A stretch of DNA of 17,526 nucleotides from IMG/VR virus record IMGVR_UViG_2740892028_000002; one strand, written 5' to 3'. Source of the stretch: a virus (lineage: Duplodnaviria; Heunggongvirae; Uroviricota; Caudoviricetes). Of the stretch, positions 11,374 to 17,526 are shown piece by piece. The notes below the pieces were generated by a model. It had not been told where the DNA came from. It worked only from the letters and a program-made list of their open reading frames with translations, and made no database searches. Position 1 is the stretch's first letter. The number at the start of each line of letters is the position of its first letter. Both the position numbers and the translations under genes were made by a program.

Positions 11374-12081
11374 ATGGTTCAGAATGAAAAAGTGCGCAAA
11401 GAATTCGCCCAGCGGCTAGCGCAAGCCTGTAAAGAAGCTGGTCTTGATGAACATGGTAGGGGGATGGCCATAGCCCGTGCCCTTTCTCTTTCGTCCAAAG
11501 GCGTTAGCAAATGGTTTAATGCTGAGTCTTTACCGCGTCAGGAAAAAATGAATGCGCTTGCGAAATTTCTAAACGTTGATGTTGTTTGGCTTCAGCACGG
11601 CACTTCGTTAAATGGAGCGAATGATGAAGATACTCTTTCATTTGTTGGCAAATTAAAAAAAGGGTTAGTGCGCGTGGTTGGTGAGGCAATTCTTGGTGTT
11701 GATGGTGCCATCGAGATGACCGAAGAGCGCGATGGGTGGCTCAAAATTTATAGCGATGATCCTGATGCCTTTGGTCTTCGTGTGAAAGGAGACAGCATGT
11801 GGCCCAGAATAAAATCAGGAGAATATGTACTCATTGAGCCTAACACCAAAGTATTCCCGGGTGATGAGGTGTTTGTCAGAACCATCGAAGGACACAACAT
11901 GATCAAGATTCTTGGCTATGACAGAGATGGAGAATACCAATTTACAAGCATCAACCAGGACCACAGACCAATAACGTTGCCTTATCATCAAGTAGCAAAG
12001 GTGGAGTATGTGGCTGGTATTCTGAAGCAATCTCGCCATCTGGATGACATCGAGGCAAGGGAGTGGCTGAGAAATTATTAA
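11374..12081 (+). CDS. cI: CI repressor, HTH plus S24 LexA-like autopeptidase domain
   Basis: 235-aa ORF; N-terminal HTH, C-terminal GDSM (catalytic Ser) motif; no SD and -10 immediately upstream, consistent with leaderless translation. Confidence 0.9.
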   Translation: MVQNEKVRKEFAQRLAQACKEAGLDEHGRGMAIARALSLSSKGVSKWFNAESLPRQEKMNALAKFLNVDVVWLQHGTSLNGANDEDTLSFVGKLKKGLVRVVGEAILGVDGAIEMTEERDGWLKIYSDDPDAFGLRVKGDSMWPRIKSGEYVLIEPNTKVFPGDEVFVRTIEGHNMIKILGYDRDGEYQFTSINQDHRPITLPYHQVAKVEYVAGILKQSRHLDDIEAREWLRNY

Positions 12082-12205
12082 TACCAATAGCATAGAGACG
12101 AAAATGCGACAGGTTTTAGGTACAAATCATAACCCTATCCACAAACAACGTTGTAAATATACACATAAGACTATTGTAAAAAAAGCTCTATCCCAGTAAA
12201 TGCGG

Positions 12206-12234
12206 TTGCAAAATGGGTTGATCGAGCATATATA
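12206..12234 (+). promoter_or_regulatory. candidate sigma70 promoter for cI-downstream cassette
   Basis: TTGCAA (12206..12211), 17-bp spacer, TATATA (12229..12234); caveat: AAGGAG SD of the downstream GTG overlaps the -10. Confidence 0.35.
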
Positions 12235-12247
12235 AGGAGTATAGTTA

Positions 12248-12610
12248 GTGACCCAAGATGAAACGAATGAATATCTGAAAACCTTAGCATTGGTTCCAAG
12301 TGCAGAGGCCTCCGCAGAGGAGAAGCAGATATATAGCGTCAAAAAGGCTGTAATCGGTCTGATTGAATTTGTTACAACCAGTCTTGAAGAGCTTGGAATT
12401 GAAGGGTTGCATGAGTTAACAAACCCATCTCTTGACGAATTAGATGCAGAGCTAGAGAAACTTGACCAAAAAGCTGATGCAATCAATGAACTAAACTTAA
12501 AGCAAATCATCATATTTGCACAGATTTTAATCAAAAACATAAGAGAAAAGAATCCTGATTTGTGCTCTGAGGGATCAAAACTACTCAAGAGTGCTAAATC
12601 GGGTCTTTGA
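12248..12610 (+). CDS. hypothetical acidic protein in rexAB-equivalent position
   Basis: 120-aa ORF, GTG start with AAGGAG 8 nt upstream; visibly AT-rich relative to flanks; predicted helical and acidic. Confidence 0.5.
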   Translation: MTQDETNEYLKTLALVPSAEASAEEKQIYSVKKAVIGLIEFVTTSLEELGIEGLHELTNPSLDELDAELEKLDQKADAINELNLKQIIIFAQILIKNIREKNPDLCSEGSKLLKSAKSGL

Positions 12611-12633
12611 CACTTACAGAGCGGAGGATAAAC

Positions 12634-12756
12634 ATGTCTAGAACTGAACATATCAAAGATATGCTTAAAAGTGCGGATCGAATCAATCAGATTATTGCTG
12701 AAATGAAGCAGAGAAAAGCAGAAATGCTAGCATCAAAGCTTCCAATGGCAGCATAA
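12634..12756 (+). CDS. 40-aa small basic protein
   Basis: MSRTEHIKDMLKSADRINQIIAEMKQRKAEMLASKLPMAA; GGAGG 7 nt upstream of ATG; terminator immediately downstream; below the ORF-track cutoff. Confidence 0.4.
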   Translation: MSRTEHIKDMLKSADRINQIIAEMKQRKAEMLASKLPMAA

Positions 12757-12763
12757 CCAAAAA

Positions 12764-12787
12764 CACCCGCTTCGGCGGGTTTTCTTA
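12764..12787 (+). terminator. intrinsic terminator ending the cI-side cassette
   Basis: ACCCGC-TTCG-GCGGGT perfect 6-bp stem with tetraloop followed by TTTCTT. Confidence 0.7.
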
Positions 12788-13048
12788 TTCCCCTAAAAAG
12801 ATCAAACAACTCCACATTAGCTTTTTTGTGTCCACAGTTTTCTACCTAGCAGTTTTCTTTGCCTCACGATTCCCCCACCTAAAAACACATAACCAATTGT
12901 ATTTATTGAAAAATTGATAGATACAACTTGCTAAACCACGAAATTCTGATCCCTGCCGCATAACCTTCATCCGCAACATTTACAAAAATAAATTTCCTTA
13001 TATATCAAAATCATATTTCGTAGAGTTAATAAACCACAAAATTTTCGT

Positions 13049-13088
13049 ACCAATAGTTCTTGATAATATCGAACTATTGGTTCATTAT
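13049..13088 (+). promoter_or_regulatory. candidate OL/pL: 11-bp inverted repeat overlapping a promoter-like element
   Basis: ACCAATAGTTC (13049..13059) and GAACTATTGGT (13071..13081), perfect inverted repeats; TTGATA (13060..13065), 17 nt, CATTAT (13083..13088) on plus strand toward N. Confidence 0.4.
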
Positions 13089-13134
13089 TATCGCCATCAG
13101 CAGGACGCTGGTAGCCAAACGGAACAGATTGGCA

Positions 13135-13169
13135 TGCTCTTTAACTTCGATGGGGCGCTGACAAAGCGC
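13135..13169 (+). promoter_or_regulatory. nutL: boxA and boxB
   Basis: TGCTCTTTAAC (boxA, 13135..13145) then GCGC-TGACAAA-GCGC hairpin (boxB, 13155..13169), about 120 nt upstream of N. Confidence 0.65.
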
Positions 13170-13288
13170 AAACAGATACCAAACGAGATGGGTTTGGCGG
13201 TGATGTGAATTGCAGCTGCAACGACAGCAACCAGAAGATCAGCACCTGGCGCATCACCACCAAAGCCATTTCACATGAGGAAAACATC

Positions 13289-13597
13289 ATGACGGTAATC
13301 GTGTACGGAAAATCAACATTTGCAGGAAATGCCAAAACTCGCCGTCATGAGCGGCGCAGAAAGCTGGCTATCGAGCGTGATTCCATCTGCAACATCATCG
13401 ATTCGATCTTCGGCACAGACAGTGAGGAAGCTGTTCAGGAAGAACCGAGAAAGCGTTTAAGTCTTTCTGAAAAAGCAATATCACTCGGCATCATCAGTAA
13501 ATCAAATACAGATGCGAATGGCGGAAGCGTTTGTTTGCCTGAAGTTGCACTGTATGCTGCTGGTTACAGGTCAATGAAATCAATTACGGCGAGATAG
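13289..13597 (+). CDS. N: N-type antitermination protein (P22 gene 24-like)
   Basis: Arginine-rich motif GNAKTRRHERRRKLAIER near N-terminus; start taken at MTVIVYGK (GAGG upstream), since the track ORF start at 13205 is an in-frame 5' extension. Confidence 0.8.
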   Translation: MTVIVYGKSTFAGNAKTRRHERRRKLAIERDSICNIIDSIFGTDSEEAVQEEPRKRLSLSEKAISLGIISKSNTDANGGSVCLPEVALYAAGYRSMKSITAR

Positions 13598-13599
13598 AA

Positions 13600-13866
13600 A
13601 TGACTAGCAAACAAGTATCATATAAATGCTATTGCCCTTTATGTGGAAGAAAATTCAGCGCCAAGGCAGCATGGAAGCATATCAATGATTATCATCCAAA
13701 AGCATCAGAACGTGAGTTGATGATGATAAGAGATGTAAAACGAGAAAAAATTTCTTTCGCAACAAAGCCACTAAACGCCAACAAAAACGCAATATTGTAT
13801 CAAATGCATCGTTCAAGTGGTCCAGATTATTCTGGAGGGCTTCCATCTCTTGGAAAGAAAAAATAA
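13600..13866 (+). CDS. hypothetical zinc-ribbon-like protein
   Basis: 88-aa ORF; CPLCGRKFS...HINDYH resembles a C2H2-type metal site; start 2 nt after N stop. Confidence 0.5.
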   Translation: MTSKQVSYKCYCPLCGRKFSAKAAWKHINDYHPKASERELMMIRDVKREKISFATKPLNANKNAILYQMHRSSGPDYSGGLPSLGKKK

Positions 13867-13999
13867 CCACGCTCATGCTGGTTTTTAATGACATAAATAA
13901 CCCTATTTACTACCGCAAGCCACGCAGTGAAATGGGTGTGACTTGTGTTGGTCGCCAGAAAATGAAATTAGGCAGCAAACCACTTATTTGAGGTGAGAT

Positions 14000-14086
14000 A
14001 TGGAAGAAGAATTTGAAGAGTTCGAAGAGCATCCTCAGGATGTGATGGAACAATACCAGGACTATCCGTATGACTACGACTATTGA
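14000..14086 (+). CDS. possible 28-aa highly acidic peptide
   Basis: MEEEFEEFEEHPQDVMEQYQDYPYDYDY; GAGGTGA SD just upstream; overlaps the start of the next ORF out of frame. Confidence 0.3.
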   Translation: MEEEFEEFEEHPQDVMEQYQDYPYDYDY

Positions 14087-14270
14087 TACAAATCAATGGT
14101 GTGGACAATTCAAGCGATGTAATGGATGCAAGCTGCAATCGGAATGCATGGTTAAGCCTGAAGAAATGTTTCCTGTAATGGAGGATGGGAAATATGTCGA
14201 TAAATGGGCAGTACGAACGACGGCAATGATTGCCAGAGAACTTGGTAAACAGAATAACAAGGCTGCCTGA
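14070..14270 (+). CDS. hypothetical small Cys-containing protein
   Basis: 66-aa ORF with CGQFKRCNGCKLQSEC; weak SD; terminator overlaps its stop. Confidence 0.4.
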   Translation: MTTTIDTNQWCGQFKRCNGCKLQSECMVKPEEMFPVMEDGKYVDKWAVRTTAMIARELGKQNNKAA

Positions 14271-14287
14271 TGGTGGCCTTTATTTTT
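14259..14287 (+). terminator. intrinsic terminator within pL operon
   Basis: AAGGCTGCC-TGAT-GGTGGCCTT (9-bp stem with two G-U) followed by TATTTTT. Confidence 0.55.
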
Positions 14288-14309
14288 GGCATAAACAACA
14301 GAGGCTAAC

Positions 14310-14606
14310 ATGGAATTTAAAGGTACTGAAGGTAAGTGGGAAATAATGATGGACGGCGATGAGATTAAAATCATCCAGGCAGACTCTCTTGAAAATGGCA
14401 CAGGCTGGCGTTCGTATATTGCAATCTGTGAGGAAGTTCAATGCATTGAAGATGCCAATCTAATAGCGGCAGCGCCTGACCTTCTCGAAGCACTTCAGTT
14501 ATTACTTAAGCAAACCAAAAATAGAACAACGACAACATATCCAGAATGGTATGGAGCTGTTAATAAAGGTATCGCAGCAATCAGAAAAGCTCTTGGGGAT
14601 AAGTAA
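14310..14606 (+). CDS. hypothetical protein
   Basis: 98-aa ORF with GAGG upstream of ATG. Confidence 0.5.
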   Translation: MEFKGTEGKWEIMMDGDEIKIIQADSLENGTGWRSYIAICEEVQCIEDANLIAAAPDLLEALQLLLKQTKNRTTTTYPEWYGAVNKGIAAIRKALGDK

Positions 14607-14794
14607 TGAAAGTAAAAATAACTGCTTCTAATACCAGTTTTGTTAGTGTTGGTGATATTACAGAAGTAATAACAAACCATGATGGAACACAAGTTATGTG
14701 GTCTGATTTTTGTAAAAGATATGAGCGAGTCACTTGGTGTAAACTCGTATGGGGAGTCGAATACGAAGAATTACCTGAAATGCATGACGAATAA
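14606..14794 (+). CDS. hypothetical protein
   Basis: 62-aa ORF; start overlaps the stop of the upstream gene (TAATG). Confidence 0.45.
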   Translation: MKVKITASNTSFVSVGDITEVITNHDGTQVMWSDFCKRYERVTWCKLVWGVEYEELPEMHDE

Positions 14795-14889
14795 GCACTG
14801 TGTATTCATTCCAACGAGTGAATACACGGAGCAATGTCGCTCGTAACTAAACAGGAGCCGACTTGTTCTGATTATTGGAAATCTTCTTT

Positions 14890-14916
14890 GCCCTCCAGTG
14901 TGAGGGCGATTTTTTT
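14890..14916 (+). terminator. intrinsic terminator within pL operon
   Basis: GCCCTC-CAGTGT-GAGGGC perfect 6-bp stem followed by G-A-TTTTTTT; 12 nt upstream of the next gene start. Confidence 0.6.
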
Positions 14917-14928
14917 GACGGAGGAAAT

Positions 14929-15240
14929 ATGAAATTACGTGTCTGGCATATCCCGCAAGTACCTATGAAACCGTTCATTGTAGAAGTGGCAAGTGTTGAA
15001 GAGGGTGTTCGCCTGATGGATGCACTGGCTGATTATGACGCCTTTCAGTATGACAACAACATCAAGCCTGACTACTGCAATGCTAACGGCCTTGAGATGT
15101 GGGATGAGAGTCTTACCGATGAAGATTTATCAGAGATGGGGCTTACGGATCGCTGGGTGGATTGGTACAGCGAATGCCAATGTTACGACGACCCACGTAA
15201 ATATCTCGAAAGCCTGAAAGAAGAAACATCAGCCGCCTAA
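14929..15240 (+). CDS. hypothetical acidic protein
   Basis: Start chosen at MKLRVWHIPQV (GGAGG 5 nt upstream); the track start at 14875 would place a terminator inside the CDS. Confidence 0.5.
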   Translation: MKLRVWHIPQVPMKPFIVEVASVEEGVRLMDALADYDAFQYDNNIKPDYCNANGLEMWDESLTDEDLSEMGLTDRWVDWYSECQCYDDPRKYLESLKEETSAA

Positions 15241-15263
15241 GCGCGGCTTTACCGCATACCAAT

Positions 15264-15287
15264 AACGCTTCACTCGAGGCGTTTTCG
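15264..15287 (+). terminator. possible intrinsic terminator upstream of cIII
   Basis: AACGCTTC-ACTC-GAGGCGTT stem (8 bp, one G-U) followed by a short T-run. Confidence 0.35.
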
Positions 15288-15315
15288 TTATGCAATCAAA
15301 CAGAAGGAGCATCCT

Positions 15316-15486
15316 ATGCAACAGTTCGCTATTGCAGGGGCGGCATCGGTTCGCCCTTTCAACCCGATTTTATCGGTACAGCATTCACGAAAAAATATTT
15401 TAACCGGAGCAGACTTTAAACAACCAAGAATGAAAAGTTTGCTCGAAAAGCTTTGGGATATTTTGAAACAACAAGGCCGCCCATGA
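15316..15486 (+). CDS. cIII: CIII-like small protein
   Basis: 56-aa ORF not in the track: MQQFAIAGAASVRPFNPILSVQHSRKNILTGADFKQPRMKSLLEKLWDILKQQGRP; AGGAG 7 nt upstream; N-terminal MQ-FAIAG as in lambda CIII; correct operon position. Confidence 0.5.
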   Translation: MQQFAIAGAASVRPFNPILSVQHSRKNILTGADFKQPRMKSLLEKLWDILKQQGRP

Positions 15487-15567
15487 GTTTTACAGATAAC
15501 TGGTCAGACGAAGAATTCATTCGTCAGATGAACAAAATGCTCAATCAGCACAAAGAACAGGAGAAAG

Positions 15568-15879
15568 ATGATGATTCTGACTCTGAATGATAAGCGTGAA
15601 ATATCGCAAATAATCGCAAGTTTTACTGATGAAGATTACGAACGAATCAACAGTGAAGTTGATCGCCTCTGCAAACGTTGCGACCCAATAAGCGAAATGC
15701 TTCGCTCATATAAACCAGATGAACACACTAAGGACGCTATCGACTGGCTGGAAGATGATGACTGTGACTATCAGGAAAAAGCCGCTGAATGGTTCTGGGA
15801 TGCAATAACCGAAAGAGTTAAGGCTGAATATGCCTTCGCAATATTCAAACGCAGACACATTTATGGAGAAGCAGCATGA
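15568..15879 (+). CDS. hypothetical acidic protein upstream of recT
   Basis: 103-aa ORF; ATGA overlap with the recT start. Confidence 0.5.
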   Translation: MMILTLNDKREISQIIASFTDEDYERINSEVDRLCKRCDPISEMLRSYKPDEHTKDAIDWLEDDDCDYQEKAAEWFWDAITERVKAEYAFAIFKRRHIYGEAA

Positions 15880-16787
15880 GCAATATCGTTGAATTCGTTA
15901 AACAGCAGGAGCAGTTATTCTGCGGAGCATTGACTGAACAGACGGTGACATGGGCTAAGGAAAGCCAGTTTGCAATTCAGTATTTCCAGAAAAATGATTA
16001 CCTGGCTAAAACGGCACTGGCAAATCCAACCAGCGCACAGAACGCCATCATCAATGTTGCGGCGATCGGCATCACCTTAAACCCGGCCAGCAAACTTGCT
16101 TATCTAGTTCCGCGCGACGGCATGGTTTGCCTTGATATCAGCTATATGGGATTGCTCCATATTGCAATGGAGTCTGGTGTTATCTCATGGGGTCAGGCAA
16201 AACTTGTTCATGCTAACGATACCTATGAGTCAAACGGGCTTGATAAAGCACCAACCCATAAATACAACGCCTTCGGTGATCGTGGTGATATCGTTGGCGT
16301 TTACTGCACAGTTAAGACGCCGGCAGGTGATTATCTAACGGAAGAGATGAGTATTGCTGAAATTGAGGCTGTAAGGAAAACAAGCAAGGCGGCATTCAGC
16401 GATAAAGGACCATGGGTAAATCACTGGAATGAGATGGCGCGAAAGACGGTCGTGAAGCGTGCAAGCAAGTATTGGCCTAAGGCATCACGTCTTGATAGTG
16501 CTATTCACGTACTAAACGAAGAAGAAGGTGTATGGACTGAACCAGTTATGCCGCACAAATCAGAGGAAGATATCCGCGAAGATGAACGGAAACGCCAGCA
16601 GGAAATAATGGATAAAGCACAACTTCTTTGCGATGAAATGGCTCAGGCAGAAAACATGGATGATTTGAAGCGATATTTTGCAGAAGCATATCGCCTGACA
16701 TCTAGAATGAAATTGCAGCAGAACGTACAAGCCATTTACATAGAATGCAAAGCGAAACTGGAGGTTGCCAGTGAGCAAACTGTATGA
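15876..16787 (+). CDS. recT: RecT-family single-strand annealing recombinase
   Basis: 303-aa ORF; GPWVNHWNEMARKTVVKRASKYWP matches the conserved RecT core (GPWVTHWEEMAKKTAIRRLFKYLP in E. coli RecT). Confidence 0.85.
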   Translation: MSNIVEFVKQQEQLFCGALTEQTVTWAKESQFAIQYFQKNDYLAKTALANPTSAQNAIINVAAIGITLNPASKLAYLVPRDGMVCLDISYMGLLHIAMESGVISWGQAKLVHANDTYESNGLDKAPTHKYNAFGDRGDIVGVYCTVKTPAGDYLTEEMSIAEIEAVRKTSKAAFSDKGPWVNHWNEMARKTVVKRASKYWPKASRLDSAIHVLNEEEGVWTEPVMPHKSEEDIREDERKRQQEIMDKAQLLCDEMAQAENMDDLKRYFAEAYRLTSRMKLQQNVQAIYIECKAKLEVASEQTV

Positions 16788-17253
16788 AATAGCCAATGAA
16801 TACGCAAAATTGATGGATTCAGATTTAGAGCCAGAGATGATTGCTGACACAATAGAAGGCATGGAAGGAGAATTTACCGATAAAATAGAGCAACTTCTCG
16901 CCATTATTAAAAATGAATCTGGTTATGCTGAACGCCTCAAGGAAGAGGCAAAGTCACTAAATGAGCGAGCCGCAGTAATTCAAAATAAGATTGACAGCAT
17001 TATGGCGTATATAGCGTCATCGCTTGAAATGGTTGGCAAGAAAAAGATTCGAGCAGGTATTCACCAGGTAACAATCCGCAAACCGTCAGAAACTGTAGAA
17101 ATCATCGACTCAAGCGCCCTTCCTCCTGAATACGTTGAGTTCGAAACGACAATTAAAGCCGACAAGCTGGCAATCAAACACCAACTAAAAGCAGGAATAA
17201 ATATCCCCGGTGCTCAACTCAAAGTTGGGAAACCTTCACTTCTTATCAAATAA
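16771..17253 (+). CDS. Gp157-like coiled-coil protein, recombination-module partner
   Basis: Family assignment from recollection of Gp157-like proteins that accompany phage RecT/Erf genes; start taken at GTG 16771 (GGAGG 7 nt upstream) rather than the TTG at 16765. Confidence 0.5.
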   Translation: MSKLYEIANEYAKLMDSDLEPEMIADTIEGMEGEFTDKIEQLLAIIKNESGYAERLKEEAKSLNERAAVIQNKIDSIMAYIASSLEMVGKKKIRAGIHQVTIRKPSETVEIIDSSALPPEYVEFETTIKADKLAIKHQLKAGINIPGAQLKVGKPSLLIK

Positions 17254-17264
17254 CGGTATCGCCT

Positions 17265-17465
17265 ATGAAAAAGACTCCATGGGAGAAATGGGAAGTCGAT
17301 TTCTTGCGCGAAGTGGCGGCGACAATGCCAGTTGAAGTTATCGCAGAAAAACTGGAAAGGACTGAAAAAGCAGTAATGGCGAAAGCAACAAGGATTGGCG
17401 CTGACATTGTTAGCCGACTTCGTGGAAGACGATGGACAAGAGCCGAAGTATCACTTTTCGGGTAA
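17265..17465 (+). CDS. hypothetical protein
   Basis: 66-aa ORF with weak SD; last complete ORF before the window end. Confidence 0.35.
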   Translation: MKKTPWEKWEVDFLREVAATMPVEVIAEKLERTEKAVMAKATRIGADIVSRLRGRRWTRAEVSLFG

Positions 17466-17526
17466 TGACTCCAACTTATTGATAGTGTTTTATGTTCAGA
17501 TAATGCCCGATGACTTTGTCATGCAG

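Follow-up and report, generated by a model that had tools for sequence, protein, structure and literature searches.

A probable mosaic of lambda-like and P22-like modules, with a predicted PreS sRNA gene, in the N to cIII interval of a lambdoid phage

What do the small genes that a lambdoid phage carries between N and cIII do, and what are the terminator-like hairpins among them for? The window analyzed here (the whole stretch of DNA, 17,526 nt) raises both questions, as an earlier note had described six small ORFs in this interval as having no recognizable function, had read three hairpins as terminators that break up the operon, and had proposed the ORFs as candidate anti-defense or host-modulating genes. 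All six ORFs and all three hairpins were found where that note had placed them, and a Shine-Dalgarno-like sequence or translational coupling was found for every one of the ORFs; its placement of the interval in the early-left operon of a lambdoid phage, between N and cIII, also holds, and a P22-type nutL and N are present. We conclude that the interval is very probably the accessory segment, N to cIII, of the early-left (pL) operon of a mosaic lambda/P22-like phage or prophage, with modules that are each known elsewhere; what is new is the combination, a fresh mosaic of known modules, and the interval is otherwise routine. Specifically, i) three of the six ORFs do have a recognizable identity, as Ral, the P22 gene 17 product, and lambda orf28; ii) the second terminator is more than punctuation, being tL2a, the 3′ end of PreS (LPR1), an sRNA gene that had been overlooked; and iii) the other three ORFs, called A, D, and E below, are real genes in existing uncharacterized families. 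The modules follow one another in the order nutL; P22-type N; A; the 3′ remnant of a lambda-type N gene; orf28-ral with the ral-stop hairpin; D-E; PreS/tL2a; gene 17; the cIII leader hairpin; and cIII (Table 1). The sixth ORF is open from a TTG start (14875-15240), and its first ATG, at 14929, gives a protein of 103 aa.

Table 1. Features of the N to cIII interval and its borders, in window coordinates
Feature	Position	Strand	Evidence
nutL	13135..13169	+	boxA-like TGCTCTTTA 13135-13143; P22-type boxB GCGCTGACAAAGCGC 13155-13169; exact pattern matches
N antiterminator, P22 gene-24 type	13289..13597	+	PF25694 N_peptide, E = 6.5e-37, full length; phrog_271
ORF A, 88 aa	13600..13866	+	phrog_20899, E = 2e-64
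Remnant, lambda-type N gene 3′ end (recombination scar)	13875..13991	+	translation compared with lambda N
orf28 homologue, 28 aa	14000..14086	+	protein identical to lambda orf28; phrog_16060, E = 7e-19
ral, restriction alleviation, 66 aa	14070..14270	+	PF11058, E = 4.9e-48, 161 bits vs cut-off 25, residues 1-66 of 66
ral-stop hairpin, terminator-like, spans ral stop codon	14259..14287	+	9-bp stem (14259-14280) then TATTTTT
ORF D, 98 aa	14310..14606	+	phrog_1273, E = 4.8e-31; PF27050 via homologues
ORF E, 62 aa	14606..14794	+	phrog_10407, E = 1.5e-45; C-terminal part of phrog_16117
12-bp hairpin directly 5′ of PreS	14800..14827	+	fold of 14795-14916; conserved with lambda
PreS (LPR1) sRNA gene	14829..14916	+	87/87 exact match to lambda lpr1 at 14829-14915
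tL2a, PreS terminator hairpin and U-tract	14888-14916	+	8-bp stem (14888-14909) then T7
P22/ST64T gene 17 homologue	14929..15240	+	PF17420 (GP17), E = 7.3e-56, 186.8 bits vs cut-off 25, residues 1-98 of 98; phrog_1510
cIII leader hairpin ("weaker terminator")	15264..15287	+	scan 15264-15283, weaker; second hairpin before it, 15231-15248
cIII-like gene, downstream boundary	15316..15486	+	phrog_550, E = 1e-22; HK140 annotation

In the mosaic map, 13093-13848 is 99.2% identical to phiKp_30; 13975-14302, a block that takes in the ral-stop hairpin, is 96.3% identical to lambda; 14275-14610 is 96.7% identical to mEp043; 14795-14915 is 100% identical to lambda over 121 nt; and 15254-16000 is 99.2% identical to HK140. 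In lambda and HK140, the ral block, which ends at window position 14302, is followed after about 10 nt by the PreS block, which begins at 14795; the window has D-E (14310-14794) between them. The E. coli prophage PEC408 carries 13911-16000 at 99.7% identity, including ral, D, E, PreS, gene 17, and cIII, and a prophage of E. coli isolate 30602_1#64 (NZ_OZ040490) carries N, A, orf28, and ral at 98.6%, but no single record, whether one of these two or HK140, unites both halves of the interval as the window does, and at least 80% coverage of 13000-16000 was reached by no record searched.

The window shares gene order and strand with the lambda pL segment N-(sieB)-orf28-ral-PreS/tL2a-ea10-cIII, and the likeness extends to an identical orf28, the same 17-nt overlap of orf28 with ral, Ral itself (64 of 66 residues identical, 97%), the hairpin at the ral stop codon, all of PreS with its seed and tL2a, and the cIII leader hairpin. 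It departs from lambda in several respects: N is P22-type, and the lambda-type N survives only as a 3′ remnant; sieB, which lies on the opposite strand in lambda, is missing, and the zinc-finger gene A follows N; D-E stands between the ral hairpin and PreS; and gene 17 replaces ea10. With the early-left operon of P22, ST64T, and L (24-sieB-ral-...-17-c3), the window has in common the P22-type N and matching boxB, and then ral, a probable PF27050 (Y8K6) gene, and a gene 17 whose product is identical to ST64T gp17 at 96 of 103 residues (93%), all upstream of cIII; it differs in lacking sieB and in having a downstream recombination module of the RecT type rather than Erf/Abc.

The P22-like side of the mosaic begins with nutL, which is placed downstream of a promoter-like site (13060-13088) and upstream of N, and whose two elements we take to be the P22 consensus boxA and boxB sequences. 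The arginine-rich motif of the window N is GNAKTRRHERRRKLAIER. The lambda-type remnant beyond ORF A has a translation that ends in ...GVTCVGRQKMKLGSKPLI, to be compared with ...GITCSGRQKIKGKSIPLI at the end of lambda N, and the DNA from 13911 on aligns with the PEC408 and mEp043 N genes at their 3′ ends.

The small Cys-rich protein of the earlier note proves to be Ral, and so belongs to a characterized family, an outcome that the note itself had counted against its proposal, here for this one ORF. By eye, window Ral differs from allele AFH20603 at the same two substitutions that separate it from lambda Ral. AFH20603 relieved type I restriction in the screen of Silas et al. Lambda ral is conditionally essential in the presence of active type I restriction-modification, while orf28 and ea10 are non-essential; by analogy with lambda biology, window Ral would relieve type I restriction through enhanced modification. 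Gene 17 lies between ral and cIII in the pL operon, at the lambda ea10 position, and bears the P22 annotation "superinfection exclusion gene product 17", after the phenotype that gave the family its name; the genes for which the passages covered of Silas et al. name a phenotype do not include the ST64T allele.

A terminator scan of 12000-17526 on both strands found 11 terminator-like sites, compared with 4.3 ± 2.0 in shuffles, and the three hairpins were among the sites that the scan reported on the + strand, the third as a weaker one. All three have lambda counterparts. The ral-stop hairpin (fold of 14250-14295, -16.5 kcal/mol, z = -2.7) also follows ral in lambda. The cIII leader hairpin (fold of 15225-15295, -26.4 kcal/mol, z = -5.3) hardly varies across lambda, HK140, and two prophages that are more distant, and lies directly upstream of the cIII Shine-Dalgarno sequence. 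Between them, the second terminator (fold of 14880-14920, -12.9 kcal/mol, z = -2.8) closes the PreS match, which takes in the 18-nt seed (14863-14880) deleted in the lpr1-delta-seed mutant and which occurred in 0 of 200 shuffles; the limits of lambda lpr1 are those of primers P1107/P1108, and the seed is the 18 nt removed by primers P970/P971 (bioRxiv 10.1101/2024.10.31.621285). The predicted RNA folds at -28.9 kcal/mol (z = -3.1), and 325 phage records contain the wider block 14795-14916 at 95% identity or more. A search of 12500-16000 with Rfam 15 left PreS unmatched, the sole hit being a chance rsmX-like one at the cI-side terminator.

In lambda, PreS lies between ral and ea10 with tL2a as its 3′ end; it depends on Hfq and binds it, activates dnaN translation, and represses alaS, so that phage replication is boosted (bioRxiv 10.1101/2024.10.31.621285). 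Sequence, seed, terminator, and position 3′ of ral on the pL strand are identical in the window, where the predicted RNA gene follows E instead of ral; the precursor would thus be the 3′ UTR of E, and termination or processing at tL2a would, as in lambda, free PreS RNAs of about 88 nt and 68 nt.

The insert that separates ral from PreS consists of D and E, whose stop and start overlap (TAATG). We provisionally assign D through its homologues to PF27050 (Phage_P22_Y8K6; "XkdD/Y8K6 family"): of 163 homologues, almost every one listed has a precomputed match to PF27050, those with such a match being 51-99% identical to D, and one PGAP annotation of the D gene uses the XkdD/Y8K6 name. D itself had no match in a Pfam set that lacks the PF27050 model. 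The AF2 model of D has a low-confidence N-terminal sheet and a confident helical hairpin (H45-70/H77-95); Foldseek gave no match in the PDB at E < 0.4, and its helical-hairpin matches were non-specific. E has homologues in 21 protein clusters; it matches RB49 ORF076c and its relatives in their C-terminal part at 55-59% identity and Salmonella phage SP069 at 54%, and represents a small domain common to RB49-like T-even phages and a 9NA-like phage. D and E were also considered as an obligate pair, and this was rejected: in mEp043, D is followed by an unrelated 52-aa ORF, and in other prophages PF27050 is followed by DUF551. Most likely D and E are mobile, low-GC accessory cargo at the junction of the ral hairpin and PreS.

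Are the six ORFs then undescribed anti-restriction, anti-defense, or host-takeover genes, with terminators that just gate their expression? The neighborhood of ral is a recognized home of counter-defense genes and abortive-infection triggers, for example the orf184 that lies beside ral in Silas et al.; the GC content of A and E is low (0.37 and 0.34, respectively) and their distribution patchy; and virulent phages that are unrelated also carry E or the N-terminal half of D, all of which is typical of mobile accessory genes. The note's description of the interval as an accessory-gene hotspot, its operon punctuated by terminators, is supported. Against the proposal itself, i) Ral, gene 17, and orf28 are already described; ii) an sRNA has its end in the second terminator; iii) there was no sequence match to a solved structure in the PDB for A, D, or E and no significant fold match for A or D; iv) none of the six ORFs matched PADLOC at E < 0.01, a null that speaks against a defense role and not against anti-defense, since PADLOC models defense proteins; and v) the gene set that Silas et al. 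tested includes none of A, D, E, and orf28, as judged by a peptide-string search of the supplements. An NCBIfam search returned nothing useful. Nothing was found that points A, D, or E toward anti-defense, and we regard the proposal as rather unlikely. We also considered whether one of the ORFs is orf184 of Silas et al., the ral neighbor that triggers gop-beta-cII, and rejected this, as orf184 is a different protein that is absent from the window.

ORF A begins 2 nt past the N stop codon and encodes a basic protein (pI 9.9) with a disordered tail that ends in GGLPSLGKKK. The C2H2-like motif that had been noticed in it, C12-x2-C15-x11-H27-x4-H32, holds up: across the family, H27 and H32 do not vary, C12 and C15 hardly do, and F19 is also invariant or nearly so (13-member alignment). 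The AF2 model (strands E9-11 and E18-20, helices H24-31 and H37-50; pLDDT 84-89 over residues 11-50) predicts one beta-beta-alpha finger plus one more helix, and phmmer with A also pulls multi-finger eukaryotic proteins. All Pfam zinc-finger models stay below threshold on A (the best, zf-Di19, at 19.6 bits vs a cut-off of 27.5), and Foldseek with the model found nothing significant in the PDB or BFVD (all E > 0.4), so that A is better called C2H2-like than a member of the family by threshold.

Might A, orf28, and E be, in part, chance ORFs or decaying remnants? All three are short, the Shine-Dalgarno sequences of A and E are weak or moderate, the A homologue P0003 has a frameshift-like N-terminus, and a genuine N-gene remnant lies in the same interval. 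The coding sequences themselves argue otherwise. Comparison of A with its 75%-identical homologue P0006 gives pN = 0.21 and pS = 0.88-0.91 (saturated), and the zinc ligands of the family are kept down to 26% identity, so that by its pattern of substitution A is a real gene under purifying selection. orf28, which has a strong Shine-Dalgarno sequence (GAGGTGA) and encodes a very acidic protein (12 D/E, pI 4.05), differs from the copy in locus L008 at four nucleotides, all four at third codon positions, and its ORF is intact in 7 loci. E is conserved in T-even-type phages at the identities given above, and W32, C36, Y39, E40, and W44 are invariant in the alignment of its nine closest relatives. 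Chance or decay is, we believe, a very improbable explanation of these ORFs.

The company that A keeps suggests where it may act. A is found in 14 of 5426 complete E. coli genomes and in 1 of 50,697 phage records. For its relatives with the tail GGLPSLGKKR, the gene starts 2-35 nt beyond a P22-type N, and does so also next to divergent N genes of 26-34% identity; more distant relatives are the first gene called after a cI-like repressor, with no N called there. Some of these distant relatives also have an N-type tail: with an HMM of N C-termini, P0169 scores 20.3 bits (reached by 0 of 1000 shuffled decoys, compared with 2 of 1000 for the score of P0163 and 6 of 1000 for that of P0162), it alone scores significantly, and in pairwise BLASTP it matches the window N at E = 0.002. 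A itself as an N homologue was rejected, as hhalign of family against family was negative and Pfam N_peptide matches no member.

Such synteny with N, or occupation of its place, together with the N-type tail of P0169, the basic charge, the zinc finger, and a conserved IRDARR helix, would fit a protein that acts on the elongation/antitermination machinery, as a partner of N or an alternative to it, rather than on host defenses. Several observations tell against this: the same HMM gives the window A only 0.5 bits, and A and its subgroup have no similarity to the N tail; the profile-profile and N_peptide comparisons are negative; no boxA motif was seen in the leader of the N-less zinc-finger phage L021; chimeras of a zinc-finger core and an N tail may be by-products of the recombination that left the N remnant just downstream of A; and tight linkage alone can account for the synteny. 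We think this account of A unlikely. It is equally speculative, and we advance it as a long shot, that the family as a whole comprises unrecognized small C2H2 immediate-early proteins tied to the position of N, which would act on the elongation/antitermination complex as a cofactor, a modulator, or a zinc-finger alternative to N, and not as generic anti-defense proteins. The most probable role of A is that of an immediate-early partner of N, with transcription or the host as its target.

To return to the operon as a mosaic of known modules, its expression would follow the lambda and P22 pattern. RNA polymerase initiated at pL and modified by N at nutL would read through the hairpins, by analogy with both phages, and D, E, gene 17, cIII, and the recombination genes would then be N-dependent; in an operon punctuated by intrinsic terminators, textbook knowledge leads one to expect read-through to depend on N. 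The first predicted intrinsic terminator comes after N, A, orf28, and ral, so that these four could be made earliest, although Rho-dependent terminators between N and ral could alter this picture of A, orf28, and ral as immediate-early genes. For the window phage, we infer N-dependence, PreS production, and Hfq binding from identity to lambda.

The wider meaning of the locus lies first in PreS. Of the 11 annotated phage records listed, 10 have no feature marked over the PreS block, and the remaining one, HK75, marks the terminator only, so that annotation pipelines and readers see just a terminator or an intergenic gap; recognizing PreS changes how "terminators" in lambdoid pL operons are read. 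The window also shows the build-up of accessory genes at both junctions that flank PreS, where D-E stands on the upstream side and gene 17 or ea10 on the downstream side. Finally, if the conserved association between N and a zinc-finger gene has to do with antitermination, a regulatory system that is among the best studied would gain a component.

The window comes from a lambdoid phage or prophage whose pL operon lies on the plus strand, and all six small ORFs (A to F) that the earlier note placed between N and a cIII-like gene are present, each with plausible translation signals or coupling: ORF A starts 2 nt past the N stop codon; a Shine-Dalgarno sequence, GAGGTGA, precedes ORF B, which shares 17 nt with C; the stop codon of D and the start codon of E run together in TAATG; and F is preceded by GGAGG. 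Downstream of the interval lie the cIII-like gene, a 103-aa ORF, and RecT. Operon segments of this type are known: N, orf28-ral, PreS/tL2a, gene 17, and the cIII leader are all familiar modules, and ORFs A, D, and E are members of three existing, uncharacterised families. What the earlier note observed is confirmed, whereas its interpretation holds in part: the reading as an N-to-cIII segment of the pL operon stands, but three of the six ORFs, C (ral), F (gene 17), and B (orf28), all taken to have no recognisable function, were already known, and the second of its terminators ends an sRNA, PreS.

Features and closest-match blocks of the N-to-cIII interval
Feature	Position	Strand	Remark
boxA	13135-13143	+	upstream of N
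P22-type boxB	13155-13169	+	GCGCTGACAAAGCGC; upstream of N
P22-type N gene	13289-13597	+	PF25694, E = 6.5e-37
ORF A	13600-13866	+	88 aa
Remnant, 3′ end of lambda-type N	13875-13991		just 3′ of ORF A; DNA homology from 13911
ORF B	14000-14086	+	28 aa
ORF C	14070-14270	+	66 aa
Terminator-like hairpin 1	14259-14280	+	scan; -16.5 kcal/mol
ORF D	14310-14606	+	98 aa
ORF E	14606-14794	+	62 aa
ORF F	14875-15240	+	from TTG; first ATG, 14929, gives 103 aa
Terminator-like hairpin 2	14888-14909	+	scan; -12.9 kcal/mol
Terminator-like hairpin 3	15264-15283	+	scan; -26.4 kcal/mol for whole 15225-15295
Match, Klebsiella phage phiKp_30	13093-13848		99.2%
Match, lambda	13975-14302		96.3%
Match, mEp043	14275-14610		96.7%
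Match, lambda	14795-14915		100%
Match, HK140	15254-16000		99.2%

The "Cys-rich small protein" of the earlier note, ORF C, is Ral, a characterised family (PF11058 over its full length, E = 4.9e-48; 64 of 66 residues identical to lambda Ral). Compared by eye with the allele of Ral found to relieve type I restriction in the accessory-gene screen of Silas et al. (bioRxiv 10.1101/2023.04.06.535777), it shows the same two substitutions as against lambda Ral. Lambda ral is conditionally essential where host type I restriction-modification is active, and orf28 is non-essential (PMC10695390). ORF F encodes the product of P22/ST64T gene 17 (PF17420, E = 7.3e-56; 96 of 103 residues identical to ST64T gp17), and ORF B encodes a protein identical to that of lambda orf28, with the same 17-nt overlap with ral. 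All four nucleotide differences between this orf28 and that of a prophage with an 88%-identical ral region fall at third codon positions, with a single amino acid change (E to D), a pattern suggestive of a translated peptide under constraint.

A consensus terminator scan of 12000-17526 on both strands found 11 terminator-like sites, compared with 4.3 ± 2.0 in shuffles, and scan and folding (z-scores -2.7 to -5.3) together recovered the three hairpins previously claimed between N and cIII. They are conserved lambda features, the second of them the end of an sRNA gene: i) the first hairpin also spans the ral stop codon in lambda, as seen in the sequence 3′ of lambda ral; ii) lambda, HK140, and two distant prophages carry the third in nearly invariant form 5′ of their cIII Shine-Dalgarno sequences, and we assign it to the cIII leader; and iii) about 10 nt past its ral block lambda matches window 14795-14915 at every position, in a block that ends GCCCTCcagtgtGAGGGCGATTTTTT just before ea10. 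In lambda, LPR1/PreS is an Hfq-dependent, lytic-cycle sRNA of ~88 nt, processed to ~68 nt, which lies between ral and ea10 with terminator tL2a as its 3′ end; it activates translation of dnaN, represses alaS, and promotes replication of the phage DNA (10.1101/2024.10.31.621285). When lpr1 and its 18-nt seed are delimited by the Table S5 primers of that study, the resulting 87-nt sequence matches window 14829-14915 exactly; on this evidence the second terminator is tL2a, the 3′ end of a PreS gene that the earlier note overlooked. The block 14795-14916 is found in 325 phage records at no less than 95% identity, and of the 11 annotated records listed, 10 have no feature marked over it, while HK75 marks a terminator; Rfam 15 holds no match to it. 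Directly 5′ of PreS, a 12-bp hairpin at 14800-14827, 100% identical in lambda, might set the 5′ end or processing of the sRNA. The scan predicted no plus-strand intrinsic terminator between pL and 14259, so N, A, orf28, and ral might be made before antitermination, to judge by intrinsic terminators; Rho-dependent termination could alter this.

A gap of about 10 nt separates the ral and PreS blocks of lambda and HK140, whereas in the window ORFs D and E (14310-14794) are inserted between the two. ORF D has 163 homologues in enterobacterial prophages; among those listed, nearly all have a precomputed hit to PF27050 ("Phage_P22_Y8K6"), and one PGAP record names the gene "XkdD/Y8K6 family phage-associated protein". 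The family motifs are N-terminal MEFKGTxGxW, then EDAxLIAAAPDLLEALQ, and C-terminal AAISKALGEE; in our alignment of homologues (A1) KGTxGxW, LIAAAPDLLEAL, and AAISKALGEE are invariant, and the second and third are separated by a hypervariable stretch of 20-40 residues, differing in length as well as sequence, that looks like a diversifying specificity region. In the AF2 model of D (pLDDT 72.7) a helical hairpin is predicted with confidence and a three-stranded sheet weakly, and the model has no significant fold match; residues 4-52 resemble ORFs of Klebsiella, Salmonella, Cronobacter, and Proteus phages of ~145 kb. ORF E, with 21 protein clusters only, shares 55-59% identity with the C-terminal part of RB49 ORF076c and of its relatives in Krischvirus-type T-even phages, and is 54% identical to an ORF of Nonanavirus SP069 (L012 1492-1668), and 50% identical to an Aeromonas phage ORF, a small domain common to temperate lambdoid prophages and to these phages. 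RB49 ORF076c (L011 1312-1671) sits in a cluster of small hypothetical genes 3′ of gp38, and SP069 we take, from its genus, to be a 9NA-like phage. Of 5426 complete E. coli genomes, 60 carry D and E together at 80% coverage or more; we rejected an obligate pair, as D is followed by an unrelated 52-aa ORF in mEp043 and a PF27050 gene by DUF551 in other prophages. The GC content of ORFs A (0.367) and E (0.344), compared with 0.41-0.47 in their neighbours, is consistent with recent horizontal acquisition.

Comparison of ORF A with its 75%-identical homologue P0006 (pN 0.21, pS 0.88-0.91) identifies it as a real gene, and a rare one (14 of 5426 E. coli genomes and one phage record). Among 1.84 billion representative proteins searched with phmmer we found a family of 60-90-aa proteins, together with eukaryotic multi-finger proteins; the family shares CPxCG-x2-F-x7-HIxxxH and a helix ASDxELxxIRDARR, and one subgroup ends in GGLPSLGKKR. 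The C2H2-like motif of the earlier note is borne out by this conservation and by an AF2 model in which a beta-beta-alpha finger and a further helix (residues 11-50, pLDDT 84-89) are followed by a disordered tail, but matches to Pfam zinc-finger models and in fold searches were all below threshold. In ten loci of divergent prophages, GGLPSLGKKR-type members start 2-35 nt past a P22-type N just 26-34% identical to that of the window, and we read ORF A as an immediate-early partner of N. In four further loci distant relatives are the first gene called after a cI-like repressor, with no N called; these N-less contexts (L019-L022) hold P0155, P0162, and P0169, and P0163 is a further such relative. 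The C-terminus of P0169, a protein for which the contig collection lists 178 blocks, resembles P22-type N (LPSMSLYATTHKKNGRVKDVTARC), and an HMM of N C-termini gives it 20.3 bits, a score reached by 0 of 1000 shuffled decoys; P0163 and P0162, which end in VTAR, are weaker (2 and 6 of 1000 decoys). ORF A and its subgroup gave no score against this HMM, and whole-family comparisons with N were negative; a role for ORF A at the elongation complex we consider possible but unlikely, and the window's own protein lends it no support. Another locus, L013 (GCA_020268605.1, CP084222.1, 1-7255), carries N-like and cro-like genes in tandem, two of each. The zinc-finger gene follows one of the N-like genes, and a 174-aa ORF weakly matching the beta-clamp central domain follows the other; a GmrSD_N gene is nearby, and the locus may represent tandem or nested immunity regions.

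Two small overlapping ORFs 3′ of cI, 12248-12610 (120 aa) and 12607-12756 (49 aa), occupy the position of lambda rexAB and are closed just before pL by a strong bidirectional terminator (ACCCGCTTCGGCGGGT, 12765-12780); they have weak matches alone (phrog_16322, E = 1.7e-6; sub-threshold AbiEi-like) and may be lysogen-expressed morons. The acidic 103-aa ORF at 15568-15879 (phrog_3486) overlaps the RecT start in ATGA and is conserved beside RecT in other prophages too, HK140 and PEC408 among the examples.

Neither among phage records nor among complete E. coli genomes does any entry span 80% or more of 13000-16000, and the segment is a mosaic of blocks with different closest matches; 13911-16000 is present in E. 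coli PEC408 at 99.7%, and 13093-14312 in E. coli NZ_OZ040490 at 98.6%. The intact P22-type N and ORF A both lie upstream of the lambda-type N remnant, whose translation ends GVTCVGRQKMKLGSKPLI (lambda N ends GITCSGRQKIKGKSIPLI). The remnant looks like the scar of an N-allele replacement and indicates that recombination has exchanged N alleles at this site; the same recombination could also have made the zinc-finger/N-tail chimeras. The points worth carrying forward are the overlooked PreS sRNA and the linkage of N to a zinc-finger gene.
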